DNA of 64,000 nt from a virus, in the IMG/VR virus record IMGVR_UViG_3300035681_000001, positions 64,001 to 128,000 of that record. One strand, 5' to 3'. Shown here piece after piece: positions 41,662 through 61,133 of this stretch (the first letter of the stretch is position 1; every line of letters begins with the position of its first letter). A program made the position numbers and the translations under genes. The notes beneath the pieces are model-generated. The model had not been told where the DNA came from, ran no database searches, and saw only the letters and a list, made by a program, of their open reading frames with translations.

Positions 41662-42126
41662 ATGTCAATAGAATTCATTAAAAAAGAAGGATTGGGTGAC
41701 ACCTGGGCTGAGTACCAAACCAGGTTTCCGTCACTACCAGAGTTTTACTTCAAAACTCTGCAATATCCTACTAGCTGCTCTAAAGCCGAGGAGCTAGTAA
41801 GACTAATCCAACTTGAAATGAATTCTATTGATGCTCAATTCATAGAACGTCGAGTAGAACTGGAAACAGTAAACACAGCCCAAAAAGACTCAGTTACCGC
41901 AGAACACGAACGGTGGAAACTAAAAGCCTTAAGGGCAGTGAGGATGAAAGCTGCACAAATACAAATACTGCAAGCTTGGATAGCAGATAACTCAAAAACC
42001 CACGAAAGCCGCTTTACACAACTTGAGTCTGAGTTATCTGCTTTACGTAAGGCCTTACTAAAGCTGGTATCGTCAGTAGAAATCTCAGACTCAACTTATT
42101 GTGAAATTATTAAGCTGCTGGCTTAG
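41662..42126 (+). CDS. Hypothetical coiled-coil protein
   Basis: ATG 41662 follows the dut stop; converges on the portal gene with a 17-nt overlap. Confidence 0.65.
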   Translation: MSIEFIKKEGLGDTWAEYQTRFPSLPEFYFKTLQYPTSCSKAEELVRLIQLEMNSIDAQFIERRVELETVNTAQKDSVTAEHERWKLKALRAVRMKAAQIQILQAWIADNSKTHESRFTQLESELSALRKALLKLVSSVEISDSTYCEIIKLLA

Positions 42127-43567
42127 CTGGCAACCTAGCTTGACGATTAGGCATACTATTTCCAGTAGGACGACCTCTACCACCCGTACCGCCCTTACCT
42201 GTTTCATCAGCACCAGGTTTAGGTAGTAAAGGATTAATAACTACCTGTTGAATAAATCGCAAATCATCAGCATCCATCTTACGATCTGACAACCTAACCA
42301 TCTGCCTAACCATGTCCCAATCTTGCGGGTTAGTAGGGTTTAGGTAACCAGTATCAGTAAGACCTTTAACCATTTGCATGGTAGCCACGCGGTCTTCGGG
42401 ACGATCTGAATAAACCCTAGTAAAAGTAGGGGGTATCTTTGCAGAAGCTCTGCTGAAGTTCCACTCTACTAACGGCATCATTACTTTACGCAACACCACT
42501 GAGGTTAAGTTCCGGCGGTGAGAATCTAGAGCATTGTAGTAAGCTTCCATGCGGCGCTCTTTAGCTTCAGGGTCAGCTTTACTATTAGCTGCTTGGTGAT
42601 CTGAAATTAAGAAATAAGGCAGAATGTGTTTGGTTGACTCTTGGTCGGTATAGGCAATAGCATCTAAGAAAGTAGTTCCTACGTTATCAAACAACGGAAC
42701 TGAATTTACTGTAGGTTTGTTTTCTGGGCTCTGCTGAGGCAAAAACAGAAACTCAGGAGGACCTTCGATGTTCTCTAGTTGCTCCCTAACTAGATCCAAA
42801 GTAGTAATAGGTTTTTGTTCACCAGTAGAAACGTCCAGCCGTTTTTCAGGTAACTCGTAACTAGGGATAGAAATAGAAGTCATACGGGACCCAGTTTTAT
42901 CCAACGCGGCGCCCATCATGTCAATAATGGCTTCTTTTAAGCGATACCACTTGTAACTAGGAGCTATCAACGATCGACCGTAATAATTACCGTAGTCAGA
43001 CTCATTAGCTAAATAAAGGGTCTTCCACAGCGGCAGCTTTACTTCAGCTTGCAACGGGTTCAAACCTACTTGGTAAAAACCTGATTTATGGTAACCATCC
43101 ATAGTAGGCTTACCCTCTGTCAATCGCCCGTGCTTGTCTGGGTAAATCAAGCACGTTGAAGGGTGGTAGGTTAGCAAGTCATGCAAATACAACTGCCCAA
43201 ACTTGAGATCAAACATTACCTCCGTAAGAGAATATCCAGCCCAAAAGCTAGTGTGCTGGATAGTAGACAAACAGTTCTGCCAAGACCTACCGTGTTCGTC
43301 TTCTAGTTGTTTTATGTTGTCGTTTAGAAATTCAGCTATTTCTGGATCAGGGTGAGTTAGTTCACCAATAGTCCCTACTATGGAATTAACTTGTGTGTGC
43401 AGAGCAGTTTTGATAGTTAAGTCTTGTCTCCACATTCTTTCATAAAGCCTTAGCCTAGCTATTAAAGGTCGGCGTATAGCATCTGTTAAAGAAAAGCTGC
43501 CTAGTTGTGCAAACTTACCCCGAGCTGCACTCTTAGACAAATAACTTAGATCTCCAGATACAGGCAT
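42110..43567 (-). CDS. Portal protein (Mu gp29/DUF935-like)
   Basis: LYERMWRQDLTIKTAL, FWAGYSLTEVMF and GNYYGRSLIAPSYKWYRLK. Confidence 0.88.
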   Translation of the reverse strand: MPVSGDLSYLSKSAARGKFAQLGSFSLTDAIRRPLIARLRLYERMWRQDLTIKTALHTQVNSIVGTIGELTHPDPEIAEFLNDNIKQLEDEHGRSWQNCLSTIQHTSFWAGYSLTEVMFDLKFGQLYLHDLLTYHPSTCLIYPDKHGRLTEGKPTMDGYHKSGFYQVGLNPLQAEVKLPLWKTLYLANESDYGNYYGRSLIAPSYKWYRLKEAIIDMMGAALDKTGSRMTSISIPSYELPEKRLDVSTGEQKPITTLDLVREQLENIEGPPEFLFLPQQSPENKPTVNSVPLFDNVGTTFLDAIAYTDQESTKHILPYFLISDHQAANSKADPEAKERRMEAYYNALDSHRRNLTSVVLRKVMMPLVEWNFSRASAKIPPTFTRVYSDRPEDRVATMQMVKGLTDTGYLNPTNPQDWDMVRQMVRLSDRKMDADDLRFIQQVVINPLLPKPGADETGKGGTGGRGRPTGNSMPNRQARLPAKPAA

Positions 43568-44118: not shown

Positions 44119-44792
44119 AGGGTCTTAGCTGACTCAGTTTGAGCATCATCAATAGTAAACATATTGATGAAAATCAAGTTAGCAACTTGAACATCCATAA
44201 TAGGCAGTGGATCTAAAATAGCCACTGGGTCTTTTTTAGCAGTACGATCAATTTCTACTCCATCAATATGCGTGATGCAAATCGACATCAGCATTTCTTC
44301 CAAAGAACACCCGTTAGTTTCAGGACCTTGGTGACTGCGATCAGCAGACATCTGAGTACCAGTGTTGGGCCTAGTAAAAGTTACTGTATGTAAGTTAGAA
44401 GGCAAAAAGTCTTTAGCTAGGGTGTAACTAAGAGTAGGGGCACCCAACGCAAGGTTTTGTGCTTGTTGTCTAGCCACTCGTGCTTCAGCAGGAGACATAA
44501 AGTAACCTTCCATAAAAGCAATCAGCAGAAACTGTTTGTCTTCAATGCTGAGGTTGCTAAGCCGGTCGATTACATCCCGAGCGTTATTATCAAATTCTTT
44601 ACCGTTAACACCTACAAAAGAAAGAGCAAACAGCAGTTCTTCTACGCTGTAACCTGGTGAAGGCTGATTCTGACCAGGGTAAGGATAACGCTTGCGGGCT
44701 TCTCTCCAATCCCCAAAAGTCGGTTCCTTGAGTAGGATAGAGAAAGACTTAGAAGGAATCTGATCCTTCTCAATGGTAATCAGCTCGGTCAT
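44025..44792 (-). CDS. Tail assembly chaperone (gpG-like)
   Basis: Two similar half-domains (LKEPTFGD...EELLFALSFVGVNG and FTRPNTGT...EEMLMSICITHIDG) and a GGGAAAG slippery site near the end. Confidence 0.75.
   Translation of the reverse strand: MTELITIEKDQIPSKSFSILLKEPTFGDWREARKRYPYPGQNQPSPGYSVEELLFALSFVGVNGKEFDNNARDVIDRLSNLSIEDKQFLLIAFMEGYFMSPAEARVARQQAQNLALGAPTLSYTLAKDFLPSNLHTVTFTRPNTGTQMSADRSHQGPETNGCSLEEMLMSICITHIDGVEIDRTAKKDPVAILDPLPIMDVQVANLIFINMFTIDDAQTESAKTLGKQLGRRGGSVKPESKAKGTTRSALVVTQD
44112..44118 (-). promoter_or_regulatory. Programmed -1 ribosomal frameshift site G GGA AAG
   Basis: Same heptamer and phase (Gly-Lys) as the lambda G/T site. Confidence 0.8.
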
Positions 44793-44853
44793 GTTCAATT
44801 TGGTTAGTTTAGGGGCCTAGACCCTACCTAATCATACACCTCTAATTTACTGA

Positions 44854-47800
44854 ATGAACCCAGAAGAAAACCTAGATCTAAATGACGAACTAGACTCTGA
44901 GCTAGGGGAACTAGGTGGCGAGGATTCAGTAAAAGACCAAATAGCAGACGAGCTAGAAGGTAAGCACGATATTGCTGACGGTGACCACCAAAGCTCAGTC
45001 AAAGAATTCTTTCGTATTTACGACATTAAGGCTGGTGATCCTTTTAAAGCCGTAGAACTAGAAAGTACTGCATTCTTAGAAAAGGTAACAGCGCAAGAAC
45101 TACAAAATGTCAATCGGCTTAATAAACAAGAAGATCAACGAGCAGCAATTAATAAAACTCTAGAGACGTACCGAGAAGCACAGTCACAAATCACACAGCT
45201 GCAAGGTAACCGCTTAAGACAGTCACTGACTGCTTACGGTCACGCTATAACAGAACGCAGCGGAGGTTACATAGGACCTCAAACAGGCCTAACGTTCAGG
45301 GCTAGAACTGAAGACTATTTAGCCTTTAGTAGATCACTAGGTACCAGCCGGCTGGATATGGCTGTGTTCCAAGTACAAAACCAAGAACTACTAGGTGGTT
45401 TTTTGCGCGGTGGTGTGCGGAAATTGCAAATAACCACTCAACTAGATGAACCTATCGCGGCCTCTAGTGAAAGTGTTAGTAAGTGGTACGAAAACGAAAA
45501 ACAGAGATTTGGTATTACAGGGCCTAACGAAGTACTAGCCAGTGCTTTTAGGAATAGCCCACACTTAGGCCGAGCTGAAGTAACTGTGAGTGGTAGTTAT
45601 ATTAAAAAACCCAACGACACCCAACGCGGCTTGATGCACGCCAAAATAGCTGCTTTGTATGAAGGAGACGAGACAAACCAAAAACTAGTAGGTGCTTTTA
45701 TAGGCACACAAAACTTTACTAGAGCTCTAGCCAACACACGTACTGAAGAAGAAACTCTGTTTATCTCCTTAAAAGGAGATCAAAAGTATCTTGACGGTCA
45801 AGATCAACTAGAACGAGGTCGCGCACTGATCAGACAAAGAATAGCTAACGAGATAGCACTAGTTACTGAAGGAATCAGAGAAAACTTTACTGAAGCTCGT
45901 ACTAGTAGGCAACTAACCACAGACATAGACCGCAAACTGCAAAGAAGAAACGTAAGCTACGGTACGCACGTGTTGCCAGTAATAGGCGAGATGCTCAGTA
46001 CCGCTGTTACTGAAAAGAGACACGTGCTGTTGAATATGCAATATATAGAAAAGTTCTTAGCTGCTGAAGGAGAACACGAAGGTAAAATCTACGGCAGCTT
46101 AGCCACACTAGCCGCCGAAGGTCGCTTAACAGTAGCTGTCTCTGAGACCAGCTTAGCTAAAGGTACAGGCTATTACTCTTTAATGGACCAAGTAAGAAAA
46201 GATACGGTCAACAACACCTTAATACAAACACTGCTACAAAAAGATGCTTTTGCAGTGCTACCAACCAGGTTCTTACACACTAAAAGCATTGCTATTTTTG
46301 GAGACTCAACGCTAAGTAACTTAGTTGAGTACGGTATAGGCTCACAAAACCTTAGTGAAGAAAAATACACCTCCGCAGAATTAAACTTTGAAACTTGGGT
46401 CCGGTTAACTCAAGGTGGTCTGCCAGGAGACCTGGAAGACGAACTAACTGCGTTGGGAGTACACAGGTCTAGTGGTCAACTAGCAGCTACAGCTAGAACT
46501 CGCTCGCAACTATATGTAGACCGCATGGGGTCTGCTGCACAAGTAGCAAACTTAATAGACAAATTGGGTGAAATGGGTGGAGCCGATACACATTTGTTTG
46601 ACACACTAGAACCTGGAAAAAGGTTTAAATACAACGTTAGGTATAAGACTCCCAGCTTGATTCCAAACCTAGCCCAAAACTCAGCCCGATCAATAGCTGA
46701 AAAGGCTATGTCTGGTGTAGATATCTACCTACCTAGTGCTAACAACTACCGCTTGAGCGCGACCATAAGTGAAGAATATACTCACGACCTTAAAAGAAAA
46801 ATGCCGGTGGTTTACCTAAACACCGGCAACCGTATCATCACAGGTGCTATCTATCGTATAGCACGAGACCTAGAAGGTCAGGTTATGCTGCCTAACGGCA
46901 AAATAGCTAAAGCTGGAGACACCATAAAACTTGGTGCTCTAGAGGTATTCCAAAGTTTTATTGAAACCGTAATCAAAGCCACTGAGTACGAACGTAACTA
47001 CCGAGCGCCGGTACTGGTACTTAGGTCCATGGGTGTTGAAAAGCTAAGTCGATTTATTGACTCAGTACCTGGAGACCCGCAGGGTAAAAGAGACTTACTG
47101 TACCAACTACTAAGTCCAGAAAATAAAGGACAGCAAGCGCAAGGTTCACTAGAAGCTATACGACTATTACAATCCGTAATACGAGCTGACCCTACCGGCC
47201 GACTGCAGCGGATGGAAGCCGGGTTTGTGTCTACTGGTATTAGAAACGTAGTATCAAATATCTCAGCTAGTTTCTTACAACCACACGAAGAACTTTACTC
47301 AGGTGGGCACCTGACAGCAATCATGCCTATATTTGGCATGGACAATACCATATTCAGTAAGCACTTTAGTGGTAACTCCGGCACCGCTTTACTAAACCCT
47401 TACAAGCTGTCTCACTACGACTTAATAAACACCGGCGGGTTGGATTTATTCCGTGGAGTACAAGATTCTACTCAAATACGTACTACTAACTGGCAAGACC
47501 TAGAAGGAGGGTTGTACCACTCAGAAGGCGGCCCTACCAAAGTAACTGACATAGCCCAGTTCATCAGATCTACTAAAAATATGGCTGTTATTAATGAACA
47601 GTCGTTAAGAGAGTCTCAAGCGTTAGGGTTGACCAGCAACATACAGCTCACACCTGGTACTAATTTATACGTGATGCCTTACGGCAAGGCAGAACAAATT
47701 TCCGCTCGCTTGAAAAACAAAAAATCAGAACGGGTACTGCTAGAACCTAGTGACGAGCTGCTGAAATTCATACAACAAGGAGGCCGGAATGCTAATAACT

Positions 47801-50800
47801 TAATCCAAAACAACAACTTAATCAGAAATGCAGTTTCAGTAGACTTACCACCTGAGCAATTTGCTATCTATCGTCAGATCCTGGCAGAACAAAGAGGTGA
47901 TACTCAAAAAACTCTAGAAATACTACGTGAAAGGCAATCCAACCCTTTAACTGCTATGCAAGGGTTGTTAGGTGCTAGTCAGTATCAAAAAGTACTGATC
48001 TCAGCCGGTTTTAGTATGCAGTCTGATTTCTCGTACTTTAATGAAAAGTATCTAGACAGACCCTTAGTAGACCAAACCATAAAGTCTTACTCTTTTAGCA
48101 GCGATAACGTAGGCTCAGCTTTAACGCTAGCCAGACAAGCTAAAGAAAAACTCCGTAAGGGTACTATATTCCTAGCCGAGGACATAGACCTAGAAGATTA
48201 CTCTAGGCTAGTAGGAGGAGAAAGCTATTCCGACGCTTTTGTAAAAGCGTACCTAGTTAAAAGCGAAAGTACTTATTCGTGGGGTGAAAACGTAGATGCA
48301 GAAACCAGAAAACAACTGAACAAAATGGTGTTTGTGGATCTTACTGATCCTGCAAAACCCATACTAAAACTTAAAAAGGGTGTTTACTACAACGACAGCC
48401 AAGAAATACTGGGTCTACAAAAGATCGGTAAAATGAACTCTACTTCTCTAACCTTTACCATTGACGGCCTAGAGGTACAAAGCAGAGAAAACCGCAAGCT
48501 CAGAACCTTCACTCTACCGCTGGATAACTCAGCTATTTCTCGTCGAGCTCACCGATCTATAGCTGTGTTAAAAGAAGATGCTATGGTCAGCCAACAAGGA
48601 CCCAACGTACGATTAGAAGCTACTTACAGTACGTTGCTGTTTGGTCAAACCGGGATGCGTACGATAGGAGCCAAAGGTCCTATCTATTCCGTGATGGAAA
48701 GTTTCTTTGAAGGACTAGCTAAAAACAGAGGTTGGGATAACAGCGCTGTAGCAGTAATAAACCCTAGTCAGATCAAAGACTATAACTTCGGAGACGGGTT
48801 CTCTAAGCTGTCTGATAAAAACCACTTTTTAAGAACTGGTGCAGCTGACGCTGACCAACTAGAGTACTTTAGGCAAGGTCTGCAATACCTAATAGACACT
48901 GGTAGGAACACTGAAAAAAACCTACTAGCACGTGGCGGCCCACTAAAGTGGGGTTGGGACATATATGAACTTTTAGGAGACTTAGAGCTTAACGAAATAC
49001 AACAAATCACCACTGAACAAGCTGCAGAAAAACTCAAAAGAGTACAGCAGTTTAGTGCAAAAATCTATGGTAACAAAAACTACTTCCAAGGCGGAGCCAT
49101 AGTATCTAACACATTAACTCGCGGTCTGAGCATACTAGCCACAGTTAGCTCTCAAGCTGAAGACATCGCCACGCAAAAAGAACTGTATTTAAGTAGAAAA
49201 AAACCGGGTGCACTAGAAACAGAAATAAACTACGACAGTGTGGCACTACAAGAATACCTCTATGACTCGCAGAACCCTCGTAACCGCACTAGGGAATCCC
49301 AAGCTTTGATCTTTGGTATAAATCTAAGGAACTTAAGAGAAAACGAATTAGCGGCAGCTTTCCAATTAATGGAAGCTACGTATGGTAACAACATAATGCT
49401 ACGAGCAAACATAGACTTGAGTTTCAGCCGGATTGCCGTTTCGATGGGCATGAAAACTGAAACCAAACTAGAAGCTGCCTACGCAATGGCCATGACTCAA
49501 AACCAGCTAAAAGCGTACACTTACCAAAAAGGCGGCGCTGAAGGCCTGCAAGGTGCGCTGGTAATGCTGGCTCAGTTAAACAATCGTGTAGTAAGCACTG
49601 ACGCCGTAAGCAGATACTACTCATTTGCACAAGAAACAAACTTACTAGAATTTGGTCTTAAAGAAAAAGCCAAAAAGTCTAAAAACTGGAGGGATCAGTT
49701 AAGAGCCAACGCGTTTGTGGCTGCTTTTACGAGTAAGTACTCCATATACTCCAGACAAGACCTGGTTGAAATAGAAGAAGACCGACAGCGCCGAGTCAGA
49801 GAGGAACCTATCAAAAGTTTGGTAGACGAATTTGAAAGAGGATTGTACAGGGACATAATCCCTAAAACTGAGCTGCTAACTGCACCTACTAACATTCTGT
49901 TAAACAGAATGGAAACCTATGGCGGCATCATGAGTTCTGGAACAGTAGAGCAAGCCGCTAAAGCAATGATCGAACAGTTAAAAATAGTTAGAGGTACAGA
50001 GTTTAGAGCAGGTATGCAGCAAAATTACGGAAAATTAGAATCAGGGAAACTCACTAGTAAAAAAGCTGGTGCTAAAAGGTTTACAGAAAGTGGCAGCTTT
50101 TATAAGGAGTGGTTTTACTCAAAAGAAGCAAAATCTGATCGTTTTACTTTTACTAAAAGCATAGAAATACCATCTAATATATTCTCTCCAAAAGGGCTAA
50201 GTGAAAACTTTTTGCAATATGCAGGGTCTTTTATAGAAGAACGGTTAGGTAAAGGAAACCTACTTAAAATTACGAATTATGTCCAACTGCTAGATACTAT
50301 AAAAAAAGCAGAAACTACTCCAAGCGGGTCGCTAACATTCAAAAGTTACTACGAAAAACGCTTCAGAGAAACTTTTGATACTCCAGAGACCTTAGAGTAC
50401 TACACAAACCTAATAACTAAAAGCCGGGAACGCATTTCTAGTAACGATGGCTCAGAATACCTAGAATCCATGCGCTCCCTGGCTCTTTATGCAAAAAAAG
50501 ACTCAACACTAATGCGCACCGTACAGCAATCTCAGTTGCTGCACCTACCTATGTTAGAAATGACTGGTAGCGGTGACTCGCTAAGGTACCACCTGTCAGA
50601 TCAAGTAGTAAGTGGTGCCAGGTACGGTCTGGACATCCTAGAGCAAATTAGCTTAGTGTTCCACGGCTACAGCTCAAACATTTTAATAGAACAGCGTAAT
50701 CTACAGTCTTACTTAACAGAAGCCATCCGCAGTGGGTTGCTAAAGAAAATAACTCAAGGGATCCAGCAAGGAGAGGCTTACCAAGGCTTAGACCTAAATG

Positions 50801-53800
50801 CTAAAGAAGTAGAACTCTATCAAAACCTAGTAAACACTTTAGGTAGTACGCCGCAAAGCATTCAAACACTGTTTGAAGCTAAAGACGTAATGCGTCAAAG
50901 TGAAGGCGACCGCCTCAAGATGTCAGGTACTACCTTTGTAGGTATTAACAGTGCCTTAGTAGCTGTTAAGGACTTGATATTAGGTGACCAAATCGAGCAT
51001 GTTTTTAACACTGGAGGCACCAAAGGTACTGAAGGGTTAGCTCAAACTTTAATAAAAGAACTAAACGCAACTAGCAAACGCGCTCAAGAAGCTACAAACC
51101 AAGCTCTAGCCATAAAAAGACTGTACTTAGTCGACAGCGGCTTTAGTGACCTACCTACCGAACAAAGCTTTAAAACACAAAGCAAAGCACTAAAAGAAAT
51201 AGCAAGCGAATGGAAAACAGCCGGTAAAGATAAAGAAGCCAGAAAAGTACACGAGCTAAGGTTCTACGAAACTATGCTAGGTCTGAGTGCCGGAGACCTA
51301 AGTACAGAAGAAAAACTAAAAACCCACACTGAGAAATTGTCGTCACTATACAGAGTAGCTAATGCAGTTCGTACTGGCGCACCTTACGGCATAGCACAAG
51401 ACTCAGCTTTGATTCCAGTACAAGTCAAGGGTTTAGACGCTTTAAAAACCGCTGGTACCACTACTGGTACGTTGTTGCAGCCAGGCAGGCACAACACCAC
51501 AGCTATGATCAGCTCTAGTTTGTCGTATATGTTTACGCAACTAGGAGACTACGACGGGGATACTTTCCAAGTAGCTTTTCCTGCAATAGTACAAGAACTA
51601 GCTAAAATAAAACTTACTCAAAACAAATTAGCCAGCCTAAAACCAGGTACCGAGGCCTTTAAAAACACTTCAACAGACCTAGTTGATTTACAAAAACAAC
51701 ACACTGAAGCCATAAATGCACTTACTGGACACCTGCAGAACATCGCAGAAATGCAAAAATCTGCGCTGCAGCGGTTTAGTTCACGTTACTACGGCTTCGA
51801 TAAAGAACTACTGCGATACATGACCAATGAAGAACTGCAGCACCTTAGCTTGCAGTTCCGGGATACTATGTCAGGTTCAGACAAAGGAGCTGAGTACGTC
51901 AATGAAAGCTGGCGGCTAATCACTAGGTTAGTAAAAGCTGCTGAAGCAGTAAATCCCACTAAGCTACTTGACTACGGAACTCTATTAGAGGACTTACAAC
52001 TCACTGATGGAGAACTGAAAAAAGACCTAGCTCAGGCTTTGGACCCTGAAAAAAAGTTCACAGAAATAAACGGATTAACTGTAAGAGAGTACATAAACCA
52101 GCTGCAAATCCTTAAAAACGCAGAATTTGCAGAAACTAACGTCCGCAGCATGTTAAAAAATAGTATGGGTACTGTACTAAGCGGCGTAGAACTAGAAACC
52201 CTAGGTGCTGTAGTAGGTACTACTGGTATGGGTATGCTCGGAGTTACCTATAATTCCGTCACACCTTTGATGGAATTAGTACAAGGTCAAGAAATGGCCC
52301 AACGGGCTTTGAGTAAGCCTGAAGGTGATTCTTTGTTGCAAGGCTTAGTCAACCAAACTCAAGCAGCACTCAATACGACAGTAAAACTAGAAAAAAACCA
52401 ATTAATCAAAACACTAGACCTACAAGTAGGCATAGCCCATAATTTCTCCTTGACCACGCAGCAATTCATGCGTGATGCTGCGCTGAAGCCTAAGCAAGGC
52501 GGAGGCATACTACAGCTAGCTGCTGAATATAAGTTAAGTGAAAAGCTAAAAGAAGCTGCTAACAGTCAAACAACAGAAGAACTAAAAAGAACTGCAGTAG
52601 AACGTACTCTAAAAACTTTCATTAATACTAAAGTAGGCTCTCAACTGGGCGTAGGCAGTGCTAATAATTACAGTGCGTTCGCAGCTCTAACACTAGTAAA
52701 TGAATACTTAGGTAGTAGACTCACAGCCGAAGAAATAATAAATGATGGTATGCTAAGCAGCTACCTACAGAACAAATGGAGAGAAAACCGAGACCTAACA
52801 GCAGACCGACTAGTAGCTACCGAAATAACAAAATTACATAACCTGTTCAAAATAGACTACGTAACCAACCACATCCTAAAAGTAGACTCTAGTGTAAACG
52901 GAGGTGTACAAAGGCTAGTAGAAGTAATTAAACAGACTGCTTATGGCCAAAGTGTTAAAAATGCGGGGTACGATGACGAAGCTTACGTTAAAGGTTACCT
53001 AGACCAGCGGTTTAACAGCAAAGAATACACCGAAGGTTCAGTAGACCTACTAATACAAGGCAAACAATTTAGTCAAGAACTCCAAAAAATAGCCGCAGGA
53101 GAAAGTCCTTTAATAGGTGCTTTAGGTAAAGGTGTTTCTCAGTACCTAGCTGCAGCTACGCTGCACAACCGTAAAGGCGGAGACCAAACCGCTCGTCTTA
53201 ACTTGATGAACCAGCTAAGAACTAGTTCTGACAACTTTTACGAGAACTTTACCGAAAACGTTACTTCTAAAAAAGAAGAAACCTACAAAGCTGCTCTAGC
53301 TATAAGTGCTGTAAGTGGTCTGCTACCTATAAAAATTGCATCAGCACTTCAAAACGCTACCCCCGAGCAAAGAGGTAAGTTCTTAACTTCACCTGAAGTT
53401 CAAAATTACATAAACGCTACTTTAAGAGAGTCAGGAACCATAGCCACTGGTGTAACAGCAAACGAGCAGCAAATGCGTTTGTTAAGGCAAGTACTAAATA
53501 CTGACACTAGTGACAGCGGTACTATTCAACTTCAAGCACTATCAAGAGGTGCGGCACCTATTTCAGGTGTTGCGGAGAACCCAGAAATTGAAGCACTGCA
53601 AAGAAGCATAGACGACGTATGGGCTAAAACAGAACCTATAATGGCAGCAGAAAACCAGCAACGAATTGCAGAATCAGAAGCTCGGATAAAAACTGAAACT
53701 ACTAGGTTAGTAAAAGCTCATCGTAAGGCTGAAATATTCTCAATACTAGCTGTACCCGCATTGTTAGCTACTTTCTCAGGACAAACCCTAAAACCAGAAG

Positions 53801-54489
53801 AAATAGGCTCTATAGCCACCAACGTATTCCAAGCTGGATTGATGGCTACCAGCTTTAACAATTCAGCAGTAGGTCAGTTCTTAGCTCCTGATAAAGTAGA
53901 CGCTAAGTCCATAAAAGTCCTAGCTGAAGCTGATCGAGCTATGCAATATACCCGGTTGCGGGAGTTTGTTAGGTCTAATGAAAACCCACTAACGGGAGTA
54001 GCCCAAGCTGCTGCTTTTGAGGCTTCAGGTAGAGCTGCCAGTCATGCCGCTGCGTTGTTAATACAACGTGCAGCTCCTAGGTTAGCTGAATCAAGCGCAG
54101 GTCGAGGTACCACTGAAGTCTTAGGCGGGTTATTAGGCTTAGCTGTGAGCGGTGTATTAACCAACCGACCTATAACTGGATTAAATGAAGGCATGGGTTC
54201 AGTAGTAACCTACGCCGCTGCGGCCCTACAAAACCTACAAATTTCACTACAAGAAGCTCAAAACCGGTATATGTCTTCTTATTTAGATCCAGAAGATTCT
54301 ACTGAGATGTCCTTAAGCATATCAGGAGATACTGATTCCAGCGTTTACCCTTCAGAGCTAGAACTACAAGCTAGGACAGGCTGGGATCCCAGAGTAGAGC
54401 TCTATGATCCAGTAGCTTTTGAAGGCACTATAGATATAGAACCCCAATTACTGGGACCTGATTCCATTGAATCTATAAGCCTCGGATGA
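44854..54489 (+). CDS. 3,211-aa single-chain two-barrel RNA polymerase (probably virion-packaged) with N-terminal double-HKD PLD domain
   Basis: Beta'-like VRTGAP (R2173) and LGDYDGD (D2232-D2236); beta-like GMRTIGAKG...AVINP (1267-1304); HAK...GTQN (262-287) and HTK...GSQN (475-499). Confidence 0.8.
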   Translation: MNPEENLDLNDELDSELGELGGEDSVKDQIADELEGKHDIADGDHQSSVKEFFRIYDIKAGDPFKAVELESTAFLEKVTAQELQNVNRLNKQEDQRAAINKTLETYREAQSQITQLQGNRLRQSLTAYGHAITERSGGYIGPQTGLTFRARTEDYLAFSRSLGTSRLDMAVFQVQNQELLGGFLRGGVRKLQITTQLDEPIAASSESVSKWYENEKQRFGITGPNEVLASAFRNSPHLGRAEVTVSGSYIKKPNDTQRGLMHAKIAALYEGDETNQKLVGAFIGTQNFTRALANTRTEEETLFISLKGDQKYLDGQDQLERGRALIRQRIANEIALVTEGIRENFTEARTSRQLTTDIDRKLQRRNVSYGTHVLPVIGEMLSTAVTEKRHVLLNMQYIEKFLAAEGEHEGKIYGSLATLAAEGRLTVAVSETSLAKGTGYYSLMDQVRKDTVNNTLIQTLLQKDAFAVLPTRFLHTKSIAIFGDSTLSNLVEYGIGSQNLSEEKYTSAELNFETWVRLTQGGLPGDLEDELTALGVHRSSGQLAATARTRSQLYVDRMGSAAQVANLIDKLGEMGGADTHLFDTLEPGKRFKYNVRYKTPSLIPNLAQNSARSIAEKAMSGVDIYLPSANNYRLSATISEEYTHDLKRKMPVVYLNTGNRIITGAIYRIARDLEGQVMLPNGKIAKAGDTIKLGALEVFQSFIETVIKATEYERNYRAPVLVLRSMGVEKLSRFIDSVPGDPQGKRDLLYQLLSPENKGQQAQGSLEAIRLLQSVIRADPTGRLQRMEAGFVSTGIRNVVSNISASFLQPHEELYSGGHLTAIMPIFGMDNTIFSKHFSGNSGTALLNPYKLSHYDLINTGGLDLFRGVQDSTQIRTTNWQDLEGGLYHSEGGPTKVTDIAQFIRSTKNMAVINEQSLRESQALGLTSNIQLTPGTNLYVMPYGKAEQISARLKNKKSERVLLEPSDELLKFIQQGGRNANNLIQNNNLIRNAVSVDLPPEQFAIYRQILAEQRGDTQKTLEILRERQSNPLTAMQGLLGASQYQKVLISAGFSMQSDFSYFNEKYLDRPLVDQTIKSYSFSSDNVGSALTLARQAKEKLRKGTIFLAEDIDLEDYSRLVGGESYSDAFVKAYLVKSESTYSWGENVDAETRKQLNKMVFVDLTDPAKPILKLKKGVYYNDSQEILGLQKIGKMNSTSLTFTIDGLEVQSRENRKLRTFTLPLDNSAISRRAHRSIAVLKEDAMVSQQGPNVRLEATYSTLLFGQTGMRTIGAKGPIYSVMESFFEGLAKNRGWDNSAVAVINPSQIKDYNFGDGFSKLSDKNHFLRTGAADADQLEYFRQGLQYLIDTGRNTEKNLLARGGPLKWGWDIYELLGDLELNEIQQITTEQAAEKLKRVQQFSAKIYGNKNYFQGGAIVSNTLTRGLSILATVSSQAEDIATQKELYLSRKKPGALETEINYDSVALQEYLYDSQNPRNRTRESQALIFGINLRNLRENELAAAFQLMEATYGNNIMLRANIDLSFSRIAVSMGMKTETKLEAAYAMAMTQNQLKAYTYQKGGAEGLQGALVMLAQLNNRVVSTDAVSRYYSFAQETNLLEFGLKEKAKKSKNWRDQLRANAFVAAFTSKYSIYSRQDLVEIEEDRQRRVREEPIKSLVDEFERGLYRDIIPKTELLTAPTNILLNRMETYGGIMSSGTVEQAAKAMIEQLKIVRGTEFRAGMQQNYGKLESGKLTSKKAGAKRFTESGSFYKEWFYSKEAKSDRFTFTKSIEIPSNIFSPKGLSENFLQYAGSFIEERLGKGNLLKITNYVQLLDTIKKAETTPSGSLTFKSYYEKRFRETFDTPETLEYYTNLITKSRERISSNDGSEYLESMRSLALYAKKDSTLMRTVQQSQLLHLPMLEMTGSGDSLRYHLSDQVVSGARYGLDILEQISLVFHGYSSNILIEQRNLQSYLTEAIRSGLLKKITQGIQQGEAYQGLDLNAKEVELYQNLVNTLGSTPQSIQTLFEAKDVMRQSEGDRLKMSGTTFVGINSALVAVKDLILGDQIEHVFNTGGTKGTEGLAQTLIKELNATSKRAQEATNQALAIKRLYLVDSGFSDLPTEQSFKTQSKALKEIASEWKTAGKDKEARKVHELRFYETMLGLSAGDLSTEEKLKTHTEKLSSLYRVANAVRTGAPYGIAQDSALIPVQVKGLDALKTAGTTTGTLLQPGRHNTTAMISSSLSYMFTQLGDYDGDTFQVAFPAIVQELAKIKLTQNKLASLKPGTEAFKNTSTDLVDLQKQHTEAINALTGHLQNIAEMQKSALQRFSSRYYGFDKELLRYMTNEELQHLSLQFRDTMSGSDKGAEYVNESWRLITRLVKAAEAVNPTKLLDYGTLLEDLQLTDGELKKDLAQALDPEKKFTEINGLTVREYINQLQILKNAEFAETNVRSMLKNSMGTVLSGVELETLGAVVGTTGMGMLGVTYNSVTPLMELVQGQEMAQRALSKPEGDSLLQGLVNQTQAALNTTVKLEKNQLIKTLDLQVGIAHNFSLTTQQFMRDAALKPKQGGGILQLAAEYKLSEKLKEAANSQTTEELKRTAVERTLKTFINTKVGSQLGVGSANNYSAFAALTLVNEYLGSRLTAEEIINDGMLSSYLQNKWRENRDLTADRLVATEITKLHNLFKIDYVTNHILKVDSSVNGGVQRLVEVIKQTAYGQSVKNAGYDDEAYVKGYLDQRFNSKEYTEGSVDLLIQGKQFSQELQKIAAGESPLIGALGKGVSQYLAAATLHNRKGGDQTARLNLMNQLRTSSDNFYENFTENVTSKKEETYKAALAISAVSGLLPIKIASALQNATPEQRGKFLTSPEVQNYINATLRESGTIATGVTANEQQMRLLRQVLNTDTSDSGTIQLQALSRGAAPISGVAENPEIEALQRSIDDVWAKTEPIMAAENQQRIAESEARIKTETTRLVKAHRKAEIFSILAVPALLATFSGQTLKPEEIGSIATNVFQAGLMATSFNNSAVGQFLAPDKVDAKSIKVLAEADRAMQYTRLREFVRSNENPLTGVAQAAAFEASGRAASHAAALLIQRAAPRLAESSAGRGTTEVLGGLLGLAVSGVLTNRPITGLNEGMGSVVTYAAAALQNLQISLQEAQNRYMSSYLDPEDSTEMSLSISGDTDSSVYPSELELQARTGWDPRVELYDPVAFEGTIDIEPQLLGPDSIESISLG

Positions 54490-54965
54490 CTTCAGCCCGT
54501 ACTGAAAACTTTAGCTACCAAACGTTAGCCTATATGGTAGGTAGGTCTTACGTGCTGGGCATAGGAAAAACTTCAAGCTGGGCTGTAGAAGCGGCACCAC
54601 CTAACGTGGATCCCTCAATAACTGAAGTTCCGGAGTTAGGATTGTTAATACCTGCTGCTTTAACAGCCGTTTATTGGGATCCTAACGGACTTATAAGTGT
54701 AAACGGCGTGCACTACTCAACAGCTAACAACCTAGCAGATATAACCACTAACCACGCTACTAGGCTTTTGGCTACAGCTACTTTAAGTCACAACAACCTA
54801 ACCCTAGCTAGCTACCGTGCGTTAGGATTGTATCTAGCTAGTCCTAGTGGTGTGGGCCCTTGGTTACCTGCTGCGGTGACTGCTAGGACATTAGTATACG
54901 CAACGTACCAACCACCTACTACAGTTACGGCTAATTTGACAGAAAACATAAAGCTGGTCTTCTGA
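54486..54965 (+). CDS. Putative baseplate/tail protein
   Basis: YVLGIGKTSSWAVEAAPP...YRALGLY resembles small baseplate proteins; tentative. Confidence 0.45.
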   Translation: MTSARTENFSYQTLAYMVGRSYVLGIGKTSSWAVEAAPPNVDPSITEVPELGLLIPAALTAVYWDPNGLISVNGVHYSTANNLADITTNHATRLLATATLSHNNLTLASYRALGLYLASPSGVGPWLPAAVTARTLVYATYQPPTTVTANLTENIKLVF

Positions 54966-59381: not shown

Positions 59382-59429
59382 AAGCCCCCGGAAACGGGGG
59401 CTTTTTTGTGGGCTCTTTATTACACCCAC
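59382..59429 (+). terminator. Array element E2
   Basis: AAGCCCCCG-GAAA-CGGGGGC-T6-GTGGG-N12-CCCAC. Confidence 0.88.
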
Positions 59430-59438
59430 GGAGTTACA

Positions 59439-59615
59439 ATGACCTTCACCATCGCCGTCTATTGCCAACCCGTTGGGGCCACCCCCCAACGGAGGGGCAG
59501 CCACAGTGCTGCCTCCTTTGAAGAGGCGGTCGCACTGGGCGACCAACTCGTGGCCAACTACCACGAGGTCCTCAATACTGAGGGCTACGAGGTGTATTGC
59601 GAACTCATTGAATGA
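59439..59615 (+). CDS. Small hypothetical protein (58 aa)
   Basis: GGAG RBS; ATG 59439. Confidence 0.8.
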   Translation: MTFTIAVYCQPVGATPQRRGSHSAASFEEAVALGDQLVANYHEVLNTEGYEVYCELIE

Positions 59616-59651
59616 GTTTGAGACCTAAGCAAGTCCAGTAAACTGCTTACT

Positions 59652-59677
59652 AAACCCCCTGTGAAGGGGGTTTTTTT
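59652..59677 (+). terminator. Array element E3
   Basis: AAACCCCCT-GTGA-AGGGGG-T7. Confidence 0.85.
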
Positions 59678-59693
59678 GTTCTGTTTCATTCTT

Positions 59694-59777
59694 ATGGAAC
59701 TCTTTTTTGGTTGTTTTGCTGCTAACCTAGCAGCCGCAGGGCTGCTAGCTGTTATTTACCTGAGGTGCCTTAGGTAA
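59694..59777 (+). CDS. 27-aa hydrophobic peptide (absent from the track)
   Basis: MELFFGCFAANLAAAGLLAVIYLRCLR fills the space between E3 and E4. Confidence 0.6.
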   Translation: MELFFGCFAANLAAAGLLAVIYLRCLR

Positions 59778-59785
59778 ACTTTTTA

Positions 59786-59830
59786 CCCCCGGAAACGGGG
59801 GCTTTTTTGTACGTGGGTCACCATACCCAC
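59786..59830 (+). terminator. Array element E4
   Basis: CCCCCG-GAAA-CGGGGG-C-T6-GTAC-GTGGGT-CACCAT-ACCCAC. Confidence 0.88.
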
Positions 59831-59844
59831 ACTGCTTCAAAGAC

Positions 59845-60006
59845 ATGGCTGATTTCCAGATCGTCATCACCCCCTGGGGTGAAGCAAAAGTGGAGGCCTT
59901 AGGGTCTCCTGTTTTGCCCGGTTACACCGGACCGTTTACCTACCCGAAAGGGTGGGTGGTTGAGGGTGCCCTCCGGCACCTGAGGAGGTTGCACTTGATT
60001 AACTAG
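59845..60006 (+). CDS. 53-aa hypothetical protein (absent from the track)
   Basis: MADFQIVITPWGEAKVEALGSPVLPGYTGPFTYPKGWVVEGALRHLRRLHLIN fills E4-E5. Confidence 0.7.
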   Translation: MADFQIVITPWGEAKVEALGSPVLPGYTGPFTYPKGWVVEGALRHLRRLHLIN

Positions 60007-60012
60007 TCTAAT

Positions 60013-60059
60013 AAGCCCTCGGAAACGGGGGCTTTTTTGTGGGCCTCGTTAACACCCAC
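60013..60059 (+). terminator. Array element E5
   Basis: AAGCCCTCG-GAAA-CGGGGGC-T6-GTGGG-CCTCGTTAACA-CCCAC, then GGAGGT RBS. Confidence 0.88.
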
Positions 60060-60068
60060 GGAGGTAAC

Positions 60069-60608
60069 ATGTCTCGCACCAGCCGCGTCAACGGCCTACG
60101 CGACGGTCGTCGTGTGCCTAAAGCCCACCAGGGTTTTAGAAAGGTTCTGAGGGCCGAAGCCCTCAATCTGGATTTTCAGGTCCAGATTGAGGAGGATGGG
60201 ACAGATCACTCCTTTGAGGAGGATTGGACAGATCAGATGTACAACTGGGAGCAGTACAACTGGGAGCAGTACAAGTTATTAAACCGTGTCATTTATGACG
60301 ACGGTTTAGTAAAACTTGAGGTTGAAGCGTATATGCCTGTAAGGCAGTTATGCCTACACCTAAACTTAACTACGTGGTGGGGTAACCACTACGTAGGGAG
60401 GGATATTATTCCCCACTGCTCCATAAAAGGTGTAATCAAGGCTTTTAGAGCCTACGTTGAAGAGCTCAAGTGCAAAGAGGTAGAAATACCTTTTTGCATA
60501 TGTCCCTACGACGAAGACGGAAAAAGGGACTACCGAGTCTGTGTGTATCAGAAATTAGGGTTTGAAATAGACCCTGATGATCCAGATTTCCTAATCTTCT
60601 GGACTTGA
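60069..60608 (+). CDS. Hypothetical protein (179 aa), possibly GNAT-like C-terminal half
   Basis: GGAGGT RBS; C-terminal RVCVYQKLGF; family call tentative. Confidence 0.75.
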   Translation: MSRTSRVNGLRDGRRVPKAHQGFRKVLRAEALNLDFQVQIEEDGTDHSFEEDWTDQMYNWEQYNWEQYKLLNRVIYDDGLVKLEVEAYMPVRQLCLHLNLTTWWGNHYVGRDIIPHCSIKGVIKAFRAYVEELKCKEVEIPFCICPYDEDGKRDYRVCVYQKLGFEIDPDDPDFLIFWT

Positions 60609-60614
60609 TTTTAT

Positions 60615-60657
60615 ACCCCCGGAAACGGGGGTTTTTTTACGTAGGTCTAGTACCTAC
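60615..60657 (+). terminator. Array element E6
   Basis: ACCCCCG-GAAA-CGGGGG-T7-AC-GTAGGT-CTAGT-ACCTAC. Confidence 0.88.
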
Positions 60658-60671
60658 ACCACTAACAAACC

Positions 60672-60890: not shown

Positions 60891-60899
60891 TCTAACTTT

Positions 60900-60959
60900 C
60901 CCCCGGAGGGTGCCCCTGCACTCCGGGGGCTTTTTTGTGCTTAGCAATTCAGCTAACAC
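60900..60959 (+). terminator. Array element E7
   Basis: CCCCCGGAG-N12-CTCCGGGGG-C-T6-GTGC-TTAGC-AATTCA-GCTAA-CAC. Confidence 0.85.
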
Positions 60960-60977
60960 TTAAGCCCTCGGAGGGTC

Positions 60978-61073: not shown

Positions 61074-61081
61074 CTGCCTTT

Positions 61082-61124: not shown

Positions 61125-61133
61125 GGAGGTAAC

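Follow-up and report, generated by a model that had tools for sequence, protein, structure and literature searches.

A single open reading frame (ORF) at positions 44854..54489 (+ strand) of the window, the 64,000-nucleotide stretch analysed from the 189,763 bp, 96%-complete genome of an uncultured, cyanophage-like myovirus (~190 kb), conceals the two catalytic halves of a cell-type RNA polymerase (RNAP) within one chain of 3,211 aa (355 kDa). It defines a family that has gone unannotated, among whose members is a "hypothetical protein" of the cultured Microcystis phage Ma-LMM01. Homology of this protein to the two-barrel RNAPs is considered highly probable and catalytic activity probable, with packaging and use in early transcription supported rather less firmly; taken overall, the best explanation, itself held with moderate assurance, is a giant single-chain two-barrel RNAP packed in the virion and deployed in early transcription.

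Exhaustive profile searching recovered the family as ~50 clusters of unannotated giant proteins of 3,000-5,400 aa, and six full-length relatives align with the present protein from end to end. The conservation counts given below were drawn from ~50 representative clusters of relatives, extending down to 16-20% identity. No significant match to the ORF was obtained with Pfam, PHROGs, PDB phmmer or PDB hmmsearch, and searches of the 96%-complete genome with PF00940, PF00623 and PF00562, of which the latter two gave positive controls, revealed no other recognisable RNAP; the absence of PF00940 is weak evidence because the control genomes were also without a match. The four motifs on which the sequence-only reading had relied (GMRTIGAKG, AVINP, VRTGAP and LGDYDGD) were all found in the ORF where that reading had placed them. 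Among all genome ORFs of at least 60 aa the pattern D[FYW]D[GIAS]D occurs once, as the GDYDGD of this protein, and judged from sequence the four motifs are more than chance since the DxDGD-type motif is unique among the genome's ORFs and, AVINP apart, their key positions are near-invariant.

The beta/Rpb2-like half

The first module (aa ~990-1545; 47821..49488, + strand, as are all features described here) was delineated using AF2 model m8dd0876192f7 (aa 990-1700; pLDDT 67), Foldseek and VIA. The model predicts a split double-psi barrel (DPBB-B) within aa ~1040-1545 around the GMRTIGAKG loop, together with two inserts, one beta-rich and wall/flap-like (aa ~1071-1262), the other helical and about 200 residues long (aa ~1330-1510). 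With Foldseek, 49 of the 50 top matches were second-largest RNAP subunits (E 7e-3 to 4e-2, prob up to 0.98). A wide VIA search placed Rpo132, ASFV RPB2, NRPD2, A135 and C128 in ranks 1-5 (Z 6.0-7.1), with designed DPBBs (7dww) at Z 5.7 over model residues 52-536. VIA Z values for beta/Rpb2-type chains reached 7.7, and in a second look all of the 50 top rows were second-largest subunits, model residues 1-550 matching Rpb2 752-1078 over ~245 residues at an rmsd of ~5 A.

The first half of this barrel carries GFSMQSDFSYFNE (48007..48045), in which D1058 and N1063 are family-invariant (each 43/43) and G1052 nearly so (42/43); it is equated with beta 811-814 NFED by inference from position alone. 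The K-loop GMRTIGAKGP (48652..48681; GMRTIGAKG being aa 1267-1275, 48652-48678) is the proposed counterpart of beta GDKMAGRHGNKG, and as in beta it is modelled as a loop (model 275-286) between two strands. K1274 is present in 43/43 relatives, P1276 in 41/43 and G1275 in 39/43, and the suggestion that Arg1269 replaces the first beta lysine proved to hold family-wide (42/43). The proposed motif order was likewise borne out; the accompanying spacings of 27 and 24 aa were only approximate, there being 24 residues between GMRTIGAKG and AVINP (aa 1300-1304; 48751-48765) and 20 between GDKMAGRHGNKG (1063-1074) and DIVLNP (1095-1100) in E. coli beta. The equation of AVINP with DIVLNP could not be established: P1304 is invariant in six close relatives only and falls under the 80% cut-off in the wider family, and a better-conserved candidate lies at aa 1525-1540, beyond the helical insert. 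This is SRIAVSMGMKTETKLEAAY (49426..49482; consensus SRxLVPxGMxDxxxLExQY), a candidate counterpart of beta VPSRMNIGQILE, with E1540 conserved in 41/41, G1532 in 38/41 and S1525 in 33/41. It is paired by hhalign with beta 1102-1114, in an overall alignment that was not significant (E 0.81), and the last barrel strand of the model lies just ahead of it.

The beta'/Rpb1-like half

The second module (aa ~2012-2745; 50887..53088) was defined by VIA with AF2 model ma78313d96ebb (aa 1851-2800; pLDDT 65), and comprises a predicted DPBB-A (aa ~2018-2243), with a ~120-aa helical insert and carrying both VRTGAP and GDYDGD, followed by a long helical region. Foldseek returned nothing significant for this part. 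The wide VIA search matched Rpb1 (Z 8.4), RpoA' (8.1), A190 (8.1), Rpo147 (7.6), NRPD1 (7.4), C160 (7.3) and Mtb beta' (7.0), as well as the designed DPBB 7dww (Z 6.9, rmsd 2.8, 80/86 residues, model 174-393); in a second look the 50 top rows were without exception largest subunits, with a best Z of 9.1, and B. subtilis beta' 333-1079 matched model 169-895.

That structural match begins at GDRLKMSGTT (aa 2018-2027; 50905..50934), the first strand/loop of DPBB-A, which hhalign pairs with beta' 344-353 GKRVDYSGRS whether E. coli beta' alone or an 80-sequence beta' profile is used, and in the region of which G2025 (44/44) and R2014 (37/43) are conserved. The beta'-type barrel bearing VRTGAP and GDYDGD, as originally proposed, is thus upheld in its existence and not in its extent, the start being earlier, at GDRLKMSGTT. 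VRTGAP (aa 2172-2177; 51367..51384), the counterpart of beta' 424-430 NRAPTLH, is an RxGxP motif (R2173 39/39, G2175 39/39, P2177 37/39), two residues longer than the canonical [RK]xP, and sits 54 residues ahead of GDYDGD, the E. coli spacing being 28. The catalytic-type triad D2232, D2234 and D2236 lies in GDYDGD (51544..51561; LGDYDGD aa 2230-2236, 51541-51561), the counterpart of beta' 459-464 ADFDGD; GDxDGD (G2231 to D2236) was found in 44 of the 54 retrieved sequences, fragments included, and is invariant in the alignment (46/46). Further downstream, hhalign aligned the Gly-rich block GTTGMGMLGVTYNSVTP (52216..52266; G..YN, with G2455 47/48, G2463 48/48, Y2466 46/48 and N2467 47/48) to beta' 668-684 GLVTAGERYNKV, and QQFMRDAALKPK (52459..52494; QQxxRDAxLKPK, with R2540, D2541 and K2545 each 46/46, Q2536 and K2547 each 45/46) to beta' 736-750 QIRQLAGMRGLMAKP. 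GDRLKMSGTT and these two additional motifs are all collinear with beta', and the alignment to the 80-sequence profile was a single collinear one of 426 columns pairing four motifs in order, at a P value of 0.045 that is marginal only.

Two separate structure predictions bore out the proposed succession of a beta/Rpb2-like and a beta'/Rpb1-like module, with a double-psi barrel present in each model. Model quality is moderate (pLDDT 65-67, pTM 0.54-0.58), pLDDT drops below 50 in the motif loops of the beta' model (residues 159-174, 325-334 and 375-383), and Z scores of 7-9 are in the range that VIA calls 'middling'. An active site at the barrel interface has not been shown, because the two barrels were modelled separately and never together.

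The polymerase core is flanked on both sides. An N-terminal PLD-like region (45637..46350), recognised at motif level only and without a match in Pfam, contains two HxK...G[ST]xN half-sites (H262/K264...GTQN and H475/K477...GSQN; family consensus HPKxGY...IGTQNIT and HxK...GSANxS), the four H and K residues being invariant among six full-length relatives. The C-terminal region (53290..53790) has two hydrophobic segments (aa 2813-2832 and 2961-2979; Kyte-Doolittle 19-residue windows >1.5) that could be membrane-spanning, a function that is inferred, and its aa 2951-3150 block ranks with the most strongly conserved stretches of the protein in close relatives. In the mechanism proposed, the central ~1,750 residues of this multidomain protein would form a Mg-dependent, DNA-templated, single-chain two-barrel RNA polymerase built as a head-to-tail fusion of beta-type and beta'-type subunits, with a PLD-type phosphodiesterase region ahead of it and the conserved, partly hydrophobic C-terminus behind. 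D2232, D2234 and D2236 on the second barrel would bind the catalytic metal, with R1269, K1274 and K1308 on the beta side and R2173 (RxGxP), R2540, K2545 and K2547 on the beta' side holding the NTP and the RNA 3' end.

Likeness to cellular and phage polymerases

The multisubunit RNAPs (bacterial beta + beta', Rpb2 + Rpb1, and also poxvirus Rpo132 + Rpo147, ASFV and the split subunits of phiKZ/AR9) provide the best structural matches to both halves (Z 7-9), and share the order of a beta-like hybrid-binding/wall region followed by a beta'-like barrel. Equivalents of GKRVDYSGRS, NRAPTLH, NADFDGD, GERYN and RGLMAKP are collinear, with about 305 residues between DxDGD and RDAALKPK compared with 279 in E. 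coli beta' from the end of NADFDGD (464) to R744 of MRGLMAKP. By way of contrast, the giant protein is one polypeptide rather than two or more, lacks Pfam-level similarity, has RxGxP for RxP and Arg for the first beta Lys, carries large lineage-specific helical inserts inside both barrels, and embeds its RNAP in 3,211 aa whose ends are PLD-like and hydrophobic; counterparts of alpha, omega or sigma were not identified.

Cellulophaga phage phi14:2 gp66 (crAss-like, PDB 6VR4) is also a giant virion protein hiding a two-barrel RNAP (10.1101/2020.03.07.982082), single-chain and barely detectable by sequence, and shares with the present protein its barrel order and presumed role in early transcription after ejection. 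PDB phmmer and family searches revealed no sequence similarity between the two, and gp66 matched only the DPBB-B region of the aa 990-1700 model (Z 4.5; 4.5-4.7 for gp66 and QDE-1, against 7-9 for multisubunit RNAPs). Moreover, gp66 has DFDID rather than DYDGD, has no PLD fusion, and belongs to a podovirus, not a contractile-tailed phage. The sequence-only reading had likened the protein to crAss gp66 and YonO, a likeness that holds for the barrel order of gp66; a layout like that of gp66, YonO or QDE-1 was rejected, as the K-loop and the beginning of the beta'-type barrel lie ~740 residues apart, compared with a ~140-residue connector in gp66 and QDE-1. On the evidence of the predicted models, the fold looks closer to a fused beta-beta'.

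Thermus phage P23-45 has gp96, a giant structural-module virion protein that hides a two-barrel RNAP and bears membrane-type segments, plus a second two-barrel RNAP, the gp64 nvRNAP, among its early genes (PMC10770324), a two-polymerase logic shared with the present phage. No sequence similarity was detected; the RNAP of gp96 is N-terminal rather than central, its gene occupies the tape-measure position rather than a head/portal module, and the second polymerase of the present phage (of which only GDCDGD was checked) has a putative Pif1-type helicase fusion. Coliphage N4 gp50 (3,500 aa) is a virion-delivered giant polymerase of the same size class, and N4 likewise has candidate promoters in the form of hairpin-type DNA elements, and another phage RNAP for the class of genes that follows, but its vRNAP is a T7-like right-hand polymerase rather than a double-psi barrel protein.

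Within the family, Ma-LMM01 gp080 (BAF36171.1, 3,562 aa; family HMM E 8.7e-57) carries LGDFDGDTF at aa 2537, adjoins structural genes, and is accompanied by a second DxDGD protein (gp064, EGDADGDQ). Only ~22-31% identity in short BLAST segments links it to the present protein, and no annotation has ever called it a polymerase. In published work, Ma-LMM01 transcription is taken to be driven by host RNAP (PMC5780444). The transcriptome showed sigma70-like motifs ahead of middle and late genes and yielded no promoter motif specific to the phage (PMC5780444), observations that were counted against an early phage-RNAP reading.

Genome neighbourhood and proposed role

The gene is transcribed divergently from the portal-side head genes, and in all relatives examined, Ma-LMM01 included, even at about 17-20% identity, it has Mu-type portal, protease and E-type capsid genes as neighbours. 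The neighbourhood from which packaging had originally been argued is thus conserved, which strengthens the case, while packaging itself remains an inference resting on that synteny: no virion proteome exists for any family member, and MaMV-DH01 has, according to PMC9927357, not been analysed by mass spectrometry. Downstream lies the second DxDGD giant gene (motif GDCDGD, the sole part checked), and between the two, in both the present phage and its relative L002, is a conserved hairpin/T-tract array, here a small-gene array punctuated by such elements at 59.4-62.3 kb of the window. As envisaged, the polymerase would be synthesised late, alongside the head proteins, would enter the virion, and would be ejected through the contractile tail together with the DNA to transcribe the first phage genes without host RNAP; its likely targets would be the small-gene array, after which the putative Pif1-fused polymerase coded for at the array end would take over, a handover that parallels P23-45 gp96/gp64 and N4 vRNAP/RNAPII.

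An active two-barrel RNAP might instead remain unpackaged as a non-virion middle or late polymerase, its head-gene neighbourhood reflecting co-regulation only. This is unlikely, yet is accommodated by the lack of proteomic evidence, by the need for a 355-kDa protein to unfold or thread through the tail tube, and by the second DxDGD polymerase, given which the division of labour could run either way; nevertheless, synteny retained at such low identity is what virion components typically show, the N-terminal PLD fusion and the conserved hydrophobic C-terminus are hard to explain in a purely cytoplasmic polymerase, and every phage RNAP of such giant size that has been characterised (N4 gp50, phi14:2 gp66, P23-45 gp96) is a virion protein. 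Less likely still is a virion/ejection protein whose PLD and C-terminal parts carry the main role of genome delivery and whose core serves another purpose, such as replication primer synthesis, synthesis on an RNA template as in QDE-1, or DNA synthesis as in PolD. There are indeed RdRPs among the two-barrel polymerases, as well as a DNA polymerase, PolD (PMC7708050, PMC9508822), the motifs do not reveal template or product, and the second DxDGD giant is a separate candidate transcription enzyme; however, DNA-dependent RNAP subunits head the structural matches, QDE-1 and RDR2 come well below them (Z 4.3-4.7, aa 990-1700 model), no PolD chain appears among the matches listed for either model, and the set of GKRVDxSGRS-like, RxP-like, DxDGD and RGLMAKP-like motifs is that of beta'. 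That a large structural protein merely resembles RNAPs in its motifs by chance, with the fold matches being artefacts of mediocre models, is scarcely credible, despite the want of any significant sequence match to known RNAPs, the moderate model confidence and Z values below the tool's level for a safe stand-alone match, when motifs collinear with beta' are invariant or nearly so in 39-46 distant relatives, each of two separate models picks out a different RNAP subunit class (49-50 of its top 50 rows), in the expected order, and the B. subtilis beta' match starts exactly at the sequence-predicted GDRLKMSGTT.

With a giant single-chain two-barrel RNAP as the preferred reading, the existence of such a polymerase family in these phages means that they probably bring along their own transcription enzyme.

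Position and motifs of the giant gene

The window (bases 64,001-128,000 of a 189,763-bp virus record judged 96% complete by CheckV) carries at 44854-54489 on the plus strand an ORF of 3,211 open codons, and the four motifs from which the sequence-only reading had proposed a hidden single-polypeptide two-barrel RNA polymerase (RNAP) were each located where it had placed them in the product: GMRTIGAKG at aa 1267-1275, AVINP at aa 1300-1304, VRTGAP at aa 2172-2177 and LGDYDGD at aa 2230-2236, all on the plus strand. Among the genome's ORFs of 60 aa or more, the pentapeptide D[FYW]D[GIAS]D had a single occurrence, in this giant ORF. At the N-terminus, two HxK...G[ST]xN half-sites of the PLD/HKD type (45637-46350, plus strand; H262/K264 and H475/K477) were recognised at motif level only; these were not detected by Pfam and are conserved across the whole-family consensus. 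The C-terminus of the protein is strongly conserved and includes two hydrophobic segments.

Genes annotated with PHROGs on the minus strand comprised a Mu-type portal (42110-43567), a head protease (38514-39533), a major head protein (37161-38483), a tail sheath (29999-33034) and a baseplate wedge protein (19371-20456), and the presence of such neighbours as the tail sheath and the baseplate wedge protein therefore identified the phage as contractile-tailed. The head genes and the giant gene are divergently transcribed: capsid, protease, portal and a gene of ~255 aa are followed by the giant gene on the opposite strand, an order that recurs in close relatives (contigs of 25-205 kb) and is kept in the distant relatives P0043 and P0060 at ~17-20% identity. 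A similar arrangement was found in the Microcystis phage Ma-LMM01, where the family member gp080 adjoins unannotated genes preceding the tail sheath.

The 257-aa minus-strand neighbour has a listed TTG start at 44798, and an ATG at 44792 is the likelier start (both within 44790-44798), which would leave a divergent intergenic region of ~61 bp, equal in length to that of the relatives. Overlapping the stop of the giant ORF is a 159-aa gene (54486-54965, plus strand) with a sub-threshold match to the Pfam family BW3TFN, 'baseplate wedge 3 tail fiber network component' (24.8 bits; cut-off 27), and a further match to PHROG 1394, a virion structural protein; the BW3TFN match is on record for the relatives too.

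Probable relationship of the giant protein to two-barrel RNA polymerases

A word-indexed search yielded six relatives, and an exhaustive HMMER search, run with a profile of aa 1851-2800, extended these to 50 representatives at E <= 1e-3, most of them giant proteins of 3,000-5,400 aa and a few shorter or fragmentary. All ten representatives subjected to cluster look-up were unnamed or 'hypothetical protein' in their source records, and a pattern scan of IMG/VR returned one locus only. The motif GD[YFWV]DGD was present in 44 of the 54 family sequences examined. Alignment to the profile revealed a beta'-side region in which G2025 (44/44), R2173 and G2175 (39/39) and P2177 (37/39) of the RxGxP motif, each of G2231, D2232, D2234, G2235 and D2236 of GDxDGD (46/46), G2463 (48/48), Y2466 and N2467 (46-47/48), R2540, D2541 and K2545 (46/46) and K2547 (45/46) were conserved, with Q2536 and Q2537 invariant or nearly so. 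The upstream, beta-side part was constrained at D1058 and N1063 (43/43), R1269 (42/43), K1274 and K1308 (43/43) and E1540 (41/41), with G1275 and P1276 invariant or nearly so; AVINP was present as the sequence-only reading had it, but its proline, P1304, is conserved in close relatives only.

Direct sequence comparison with known enzymes gave little. With the whole giant protein or either half as query, no Pfam family was matched at E <= 1 except eIF-5a, a sub-threshold and presumably spurious match (E 0.084; 13.5 bits, cut-off 24.2), and PHROGs searches with the protein and both halves gave no useful match. Searches of all PDB chain sequences by phmmer with the protein and by hmmsearch with profile A3 found no RNAP at E <= 10, returning only noise such as YacP and La; 6VR4, the structure of phi14:2 gp66, should be among these sequences, as the fold library lists it. 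Six-frame searches of the genome with PF00623 and PF00562 were likewise negative, while 14 of 14 control genomes were positive. With aa 1-1200 and aa 1851-2800 as queries, tblastn gave no match in 50,697 phage records, and the ESM Atlas provided no usable match. In a profile-profile comparison with hhalign, 50 family cores set against 80 bacterial beta' fragments covering E. coli aa 330-810 gave one collinear alignment of 426 columns (P = E = 0.045), in which GDRLKMSGTT was paired with beta' GKRVDYSGRS, GDYDGD with ADFDGD, G..YN (aa 2463-2467) with GERYN (676-680) and QQxxRDAALKPK (aa 2536-2547) with beta' QIRQLAGMRGLMAKP (736-750), the E. coli positions having been checked. Alignments of the family with single E. 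coli beta' or beta sequences remained at motif level and non-significant, and that of the N-terminal part with six beta sequences was not significant (E 0.81). As judged from sequence comparison, the link to beta' is thus statistically weak, but it is consistent with the structural register described below. Since no curated Pfam score was attained and hhalign against beta' reached only P 0.045, the giant protein appears by these sequence measures to be a remote homologue and, by curated thresholds, not a member of the cellular beta and beta' families of the PF00623/PF00562 type.

The AlphaFold2 model of the beta-like half (aa 990-1700; pLDDT 67.2, pTM 0.58) comprised a beta-rich region at model residues 56-313 and a strand at 525-531. 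Foldseek placed second-largest RNAP subunits, among them bacterial beta, Rpb2, RPC2 and archaeal B, in 49 of its top 50 rows (E 7e-3 to 4e-2; probability up to 0.98). In the wide search with VIA, the leading matches were vaccinia Rpo132 (Z 7.1, rmsd 5.2 over 241), ASFV RPB2 (7.1), NRPD2 (7.0), A135 (6.3) and C128 (6.0), followed by double-psi barrels, either designed or VAT-type (Z 5.4-5.7 over model 52-537), and by phiKZ non-virion RNAP (5.6), QDE-1 (4.7) and phi14:2 gp66 (4.5). A second look with VIA listed second-largest subunits in 50 of 50 rows over ~245 residues at an rmsd of ~5 A, with a best Z of 7.7 and model 1-550 aligned to Rpb2 752-1078, which we take to be the hybrid-binding and wall region on the basis of Pol II domain boundaries. 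GMRTIGAKG was modelled as a loop between two strands, like the corresponding lysine-bearing loop of beta, and was followed by the strand PIYSV, a helix and the strand AVI. A helical insert of ~200 residues precedes the final strand of the barrel (aa 1514-1520) and the helix SRIAVSMGM...LE. That helix was paired by hhalign with beta VPSRMNIGQILE in an alignment that was not significant overall. The modelled beta-type double-psi barrel, with its conserved basic residues R1269, K1274 and K1308, meets one criterion of the two-barrel superfamily.

The beta'-like half (aa 1851-2800) was modelled from a 26-row alignment (pLDDT 65.4, pTM 0.54). Foldseek against the PDB returned nothing significant for this half, with helical repeat proteins ranked top. 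VIA, which is independent of Foldseek and covered 48,161 chains, placed largest RNAP subunits at ranks 1-5, 7, 8, 12, 14 and 15: Pol II Rpb1 (Z 8.4), Sulfolobus RpoA' and Pol I A190 (both 8.1), vaccinia Rpo147 (7.6), NRPD1 (7.4), Pol III C160 (7.3, rmsd 5.5 over 142), Mtb beta' (7.0) and the ASFV subunit (6.9). The designed minimal double-psi barrel 7dww matched model 174-393 (aa 2024-2243) at Z 6.9 and rmsd 2.8 over 80 of 86 residues. In a second look at the top 1,000 Foldseek chains, every one of the 50 rows listed was a largest subunit, the best being A190 (Z 9.1, rmsd 7.1 over 315), and B. subtilis beta' 333-1079 was aligned to model 169-895. The matches reach model residue ~895, equivalent to A190 ~1605 and B. 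subtilis beta' 1079. Model residue 169 is D2019 and lies within GDRLKMSGTT, which resembles beta' 344-353, GKRVDYSGRS, and furnished the best local hhalign pairing. Given the structural matches and this register, the second barrel is assigned in the model to aa ~2018-2243, interrupted by a helical insert of ~120 residues and bearing GDRLKMSGTT, VRTGAP and GDYDGD. A beta'-type barrel with a DxDGD metal-binding triad is a second criterion of the superfamily and is met, the GDYDGD loop itself being modelled at pLDDT < 50. An assignment of aa 1900-2050 to the beta-like barrel, placed one QDE-1-style connector upstream of DYDGD, was rejected, as the model puts aa 2018-2043 first in the beta'-type barrel. 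RDAALKPK, taken at first for the bridge helix, was reassigned, since alignment to the beta' profile matched it to RGLMAKP instead; FGAL..EY (aa ~2609-2618) was paired by hhalign with the bridge-helix region at low confidence, and neither a bridge helix nor a trigger loop after the second barrel could be unambiguously assigned.

Model quality is mediocre, with pLDDT below 50 in the motif loops; the Z scores lie in the band that VIA terms 'middling' and the sequence statistics are marginal. No single test of homology is strong, and the case consists of four agreeing points: across a deep family the short motifs do not vary, each of two independent models picks out a single class of RNAP subunit and the two classes differ, the order is beta-like and then beta'-like, and the structural register agrees with the motifs. 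On these grounds, the giant protein is very probably homologous to the two-barrel RNAPs, the barrels having been modelled separately and RNA synthesis being inferred. Double-psi barrels, whose presence the sequence-only reading had made one test of its proposal, are found in both models (7dww Z 6.9; designs 5.7) and in the order that it expected; its two-barrel interpretation is supported, while the barrel boundaries and the choice of closest relatives have had to be corrected.

The latter correction concerns the crAss-like phage phi14:2 virion RNAP, gp66, to which the enzyme had been likened. In gp66 and QDE-1, the barrels are joined by a connector of ~140 residues (10.1101/2020.03.07.982082), whereas ~740 residues here separate K1274 from G2018, a figure close to the ~600 expected of a simple fusion of beta and beta'. 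The motif is DYDGD and not DFDxD, the structural match to 6vr4_B (Z 4.5) is confined to the barrel, and multisubunit RNAPs outranked both QDE-1 and gp66 in both structure searches. With no RNAP recovered by the sequence and profile searches of the PDB chains either, the giant protein satisfies none of the criteria of the gp66 family, and gp66 cannot stand as its closest likeness. Because of the long barrel spacing and the higher ranking of multisubunit enzymes, the giant enzyme, whose activity is inferred, belongs to neither the crAss family nor that of the Thermus phage P23-45, yet works like the virion polymerases of both. A polymerase of the T7/N4 type was set aside, as the conserved core is modelled as double-psi barrels and RNAP large-subunit modules and not as a right-hand fold; PF00940, which represents that type, was found neither in this genome nor in the control genomes, so that its absence is weak evidence. 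A tape-measure identity fails on position, the gene lying in the head module and not in the tail module. Another giant ORF of 4,148 aa (3-11774, minus strand, continuing to genome position 63328) occupies the far end of the tail module, and a motif scan found no DxDxD in it.

The reading supported is of a hidden two-barrel RNAP of the virion type in cyanophage-like viruses with contractile tails, an enzyme laid out like fused beta and beta' and joined to a PLD-type region, virion packaging and catalysis both being inferred.

A second DxDGD protein and the hairpin array

Beyond the end of the window, a second giant ORF of 2,319 aa (genome 129720-136679, equivalent to window coordinates 65720-72679, plus strand) bears GGDCDGDS at aa 1352. 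On comparison with the family by hhalign, only the DxDGD motif was aligned, non-significantly; the gene of the relatives at this place has PIF1/AAA_30 Pfam matches. This ORF is a candidate for a non-virion RNAP.

The giant-gene cluster is separated from this second gene by an array (59382-62314, plus strand) of at least 10 near-identical GC-rich hairpins of the AAGCCCCCGGAAACGGGGGCTT type, with T4-7 and GT after each, which punctuate small plus-strand ORFs, and the same arrangement was found at a relative's locus, L002 (23866-27025). The giant-protein orthologue in L002 is shorter and lacks the insert at aa 1700-1850. Terminator-like sites numbered 25 in the window against 11 expected, and 31 against 5.4 in L002. 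The hairpins could be terminators, promoters for phage polymerases, or both.

The inference that the giant protein is packaged rests on synteny only: every relative examined has its gene next to those for portal, protease and capsid, and a literature search found no virion proteome of any family member. By analogy with P23-45 (PMC10770324) and N4, the packaged protein would, on entering the cell, transcribe the hairpin array together with the gene of the second polymerase.

Ma-LMM01 and the bearing on phage transcription

The family HMM, though not tblastn, detected (E 8.7e-57) the 3,562-aa Ma-LMM01 gp080 (BAF36171.1), which is annotated as a 'hypothetical protein' and bears LGDFDGDTF at aa 2537. 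A further hypothetical protein of this phage, gp064 (1,673 aa; locus L011, 3812-8833, minus strand), has EGDADGDQ at aa 1348 and may be the counterpart of the second polymerase without its helicase. The gp064 gene adjoins the Ma-LMM01 early-gene window (gp054-gp063, PMC5780444) and a 42-bp repeat array. A literature search found no paper linking phages of the Ma-LMM01 type to two-barrel polymerases; a published screen demanded [RK]xP ahead of DxDxD, a requirement that the RxGxP of the giant family fails.

To our knowledge, hidden two-barrel virion RNAPs have been recognised in two phage lineages only, the crAss-like podoviruses and the Thermus P23-45-like siphoviruses. The present finding adds a putative third, of ~50 unannotated clusters in contractile-tailed phages of 150-205 kb with a Mu-type portal and an E-type capsid. 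Its architecture resembles a direct beta-beta' fusion and not the compact QDE-1-like form, and so bears on the relations between single-chain and multisubunit RNAPs; if true, it would constitute a new lineage of fused 'cell-like' RNAPs, apart from both the crAss/QDE-1 clade and the split enzymes of jumbo phages.

More tentatively, and with the balance of likelihood somewhat against it, cyanomyoviruses of the Ma-LMM01 type and many uncultured relatives may run a self-contained and unnoticed transcription programme, in which a PLD-fused, single-chain beta-beta'-type RNAP is injected via the contractile tail and reads early genes punctuated by hairpins and T-tracts, the last of which encodes a second, helicase-fused two-barrel polymerase. 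The Ma-LMM01 transcriptome study ascribed all temporal classes to host sigma70-type promoters and recorded host transcription as almost unchanged during infection (PMC5780444). A self-contained programme, if true, would overturn the published view that Ma-LMM01 depends on the host sigma70 holoenzyme, and the barely changed host transcription would then fit a phage without need to take over the host RNAP. Ma-LMM01, with gp080, is a cultured test system for which material exists, and a positive result would change the view of infection in a major bloom-forming cyanobacterium.
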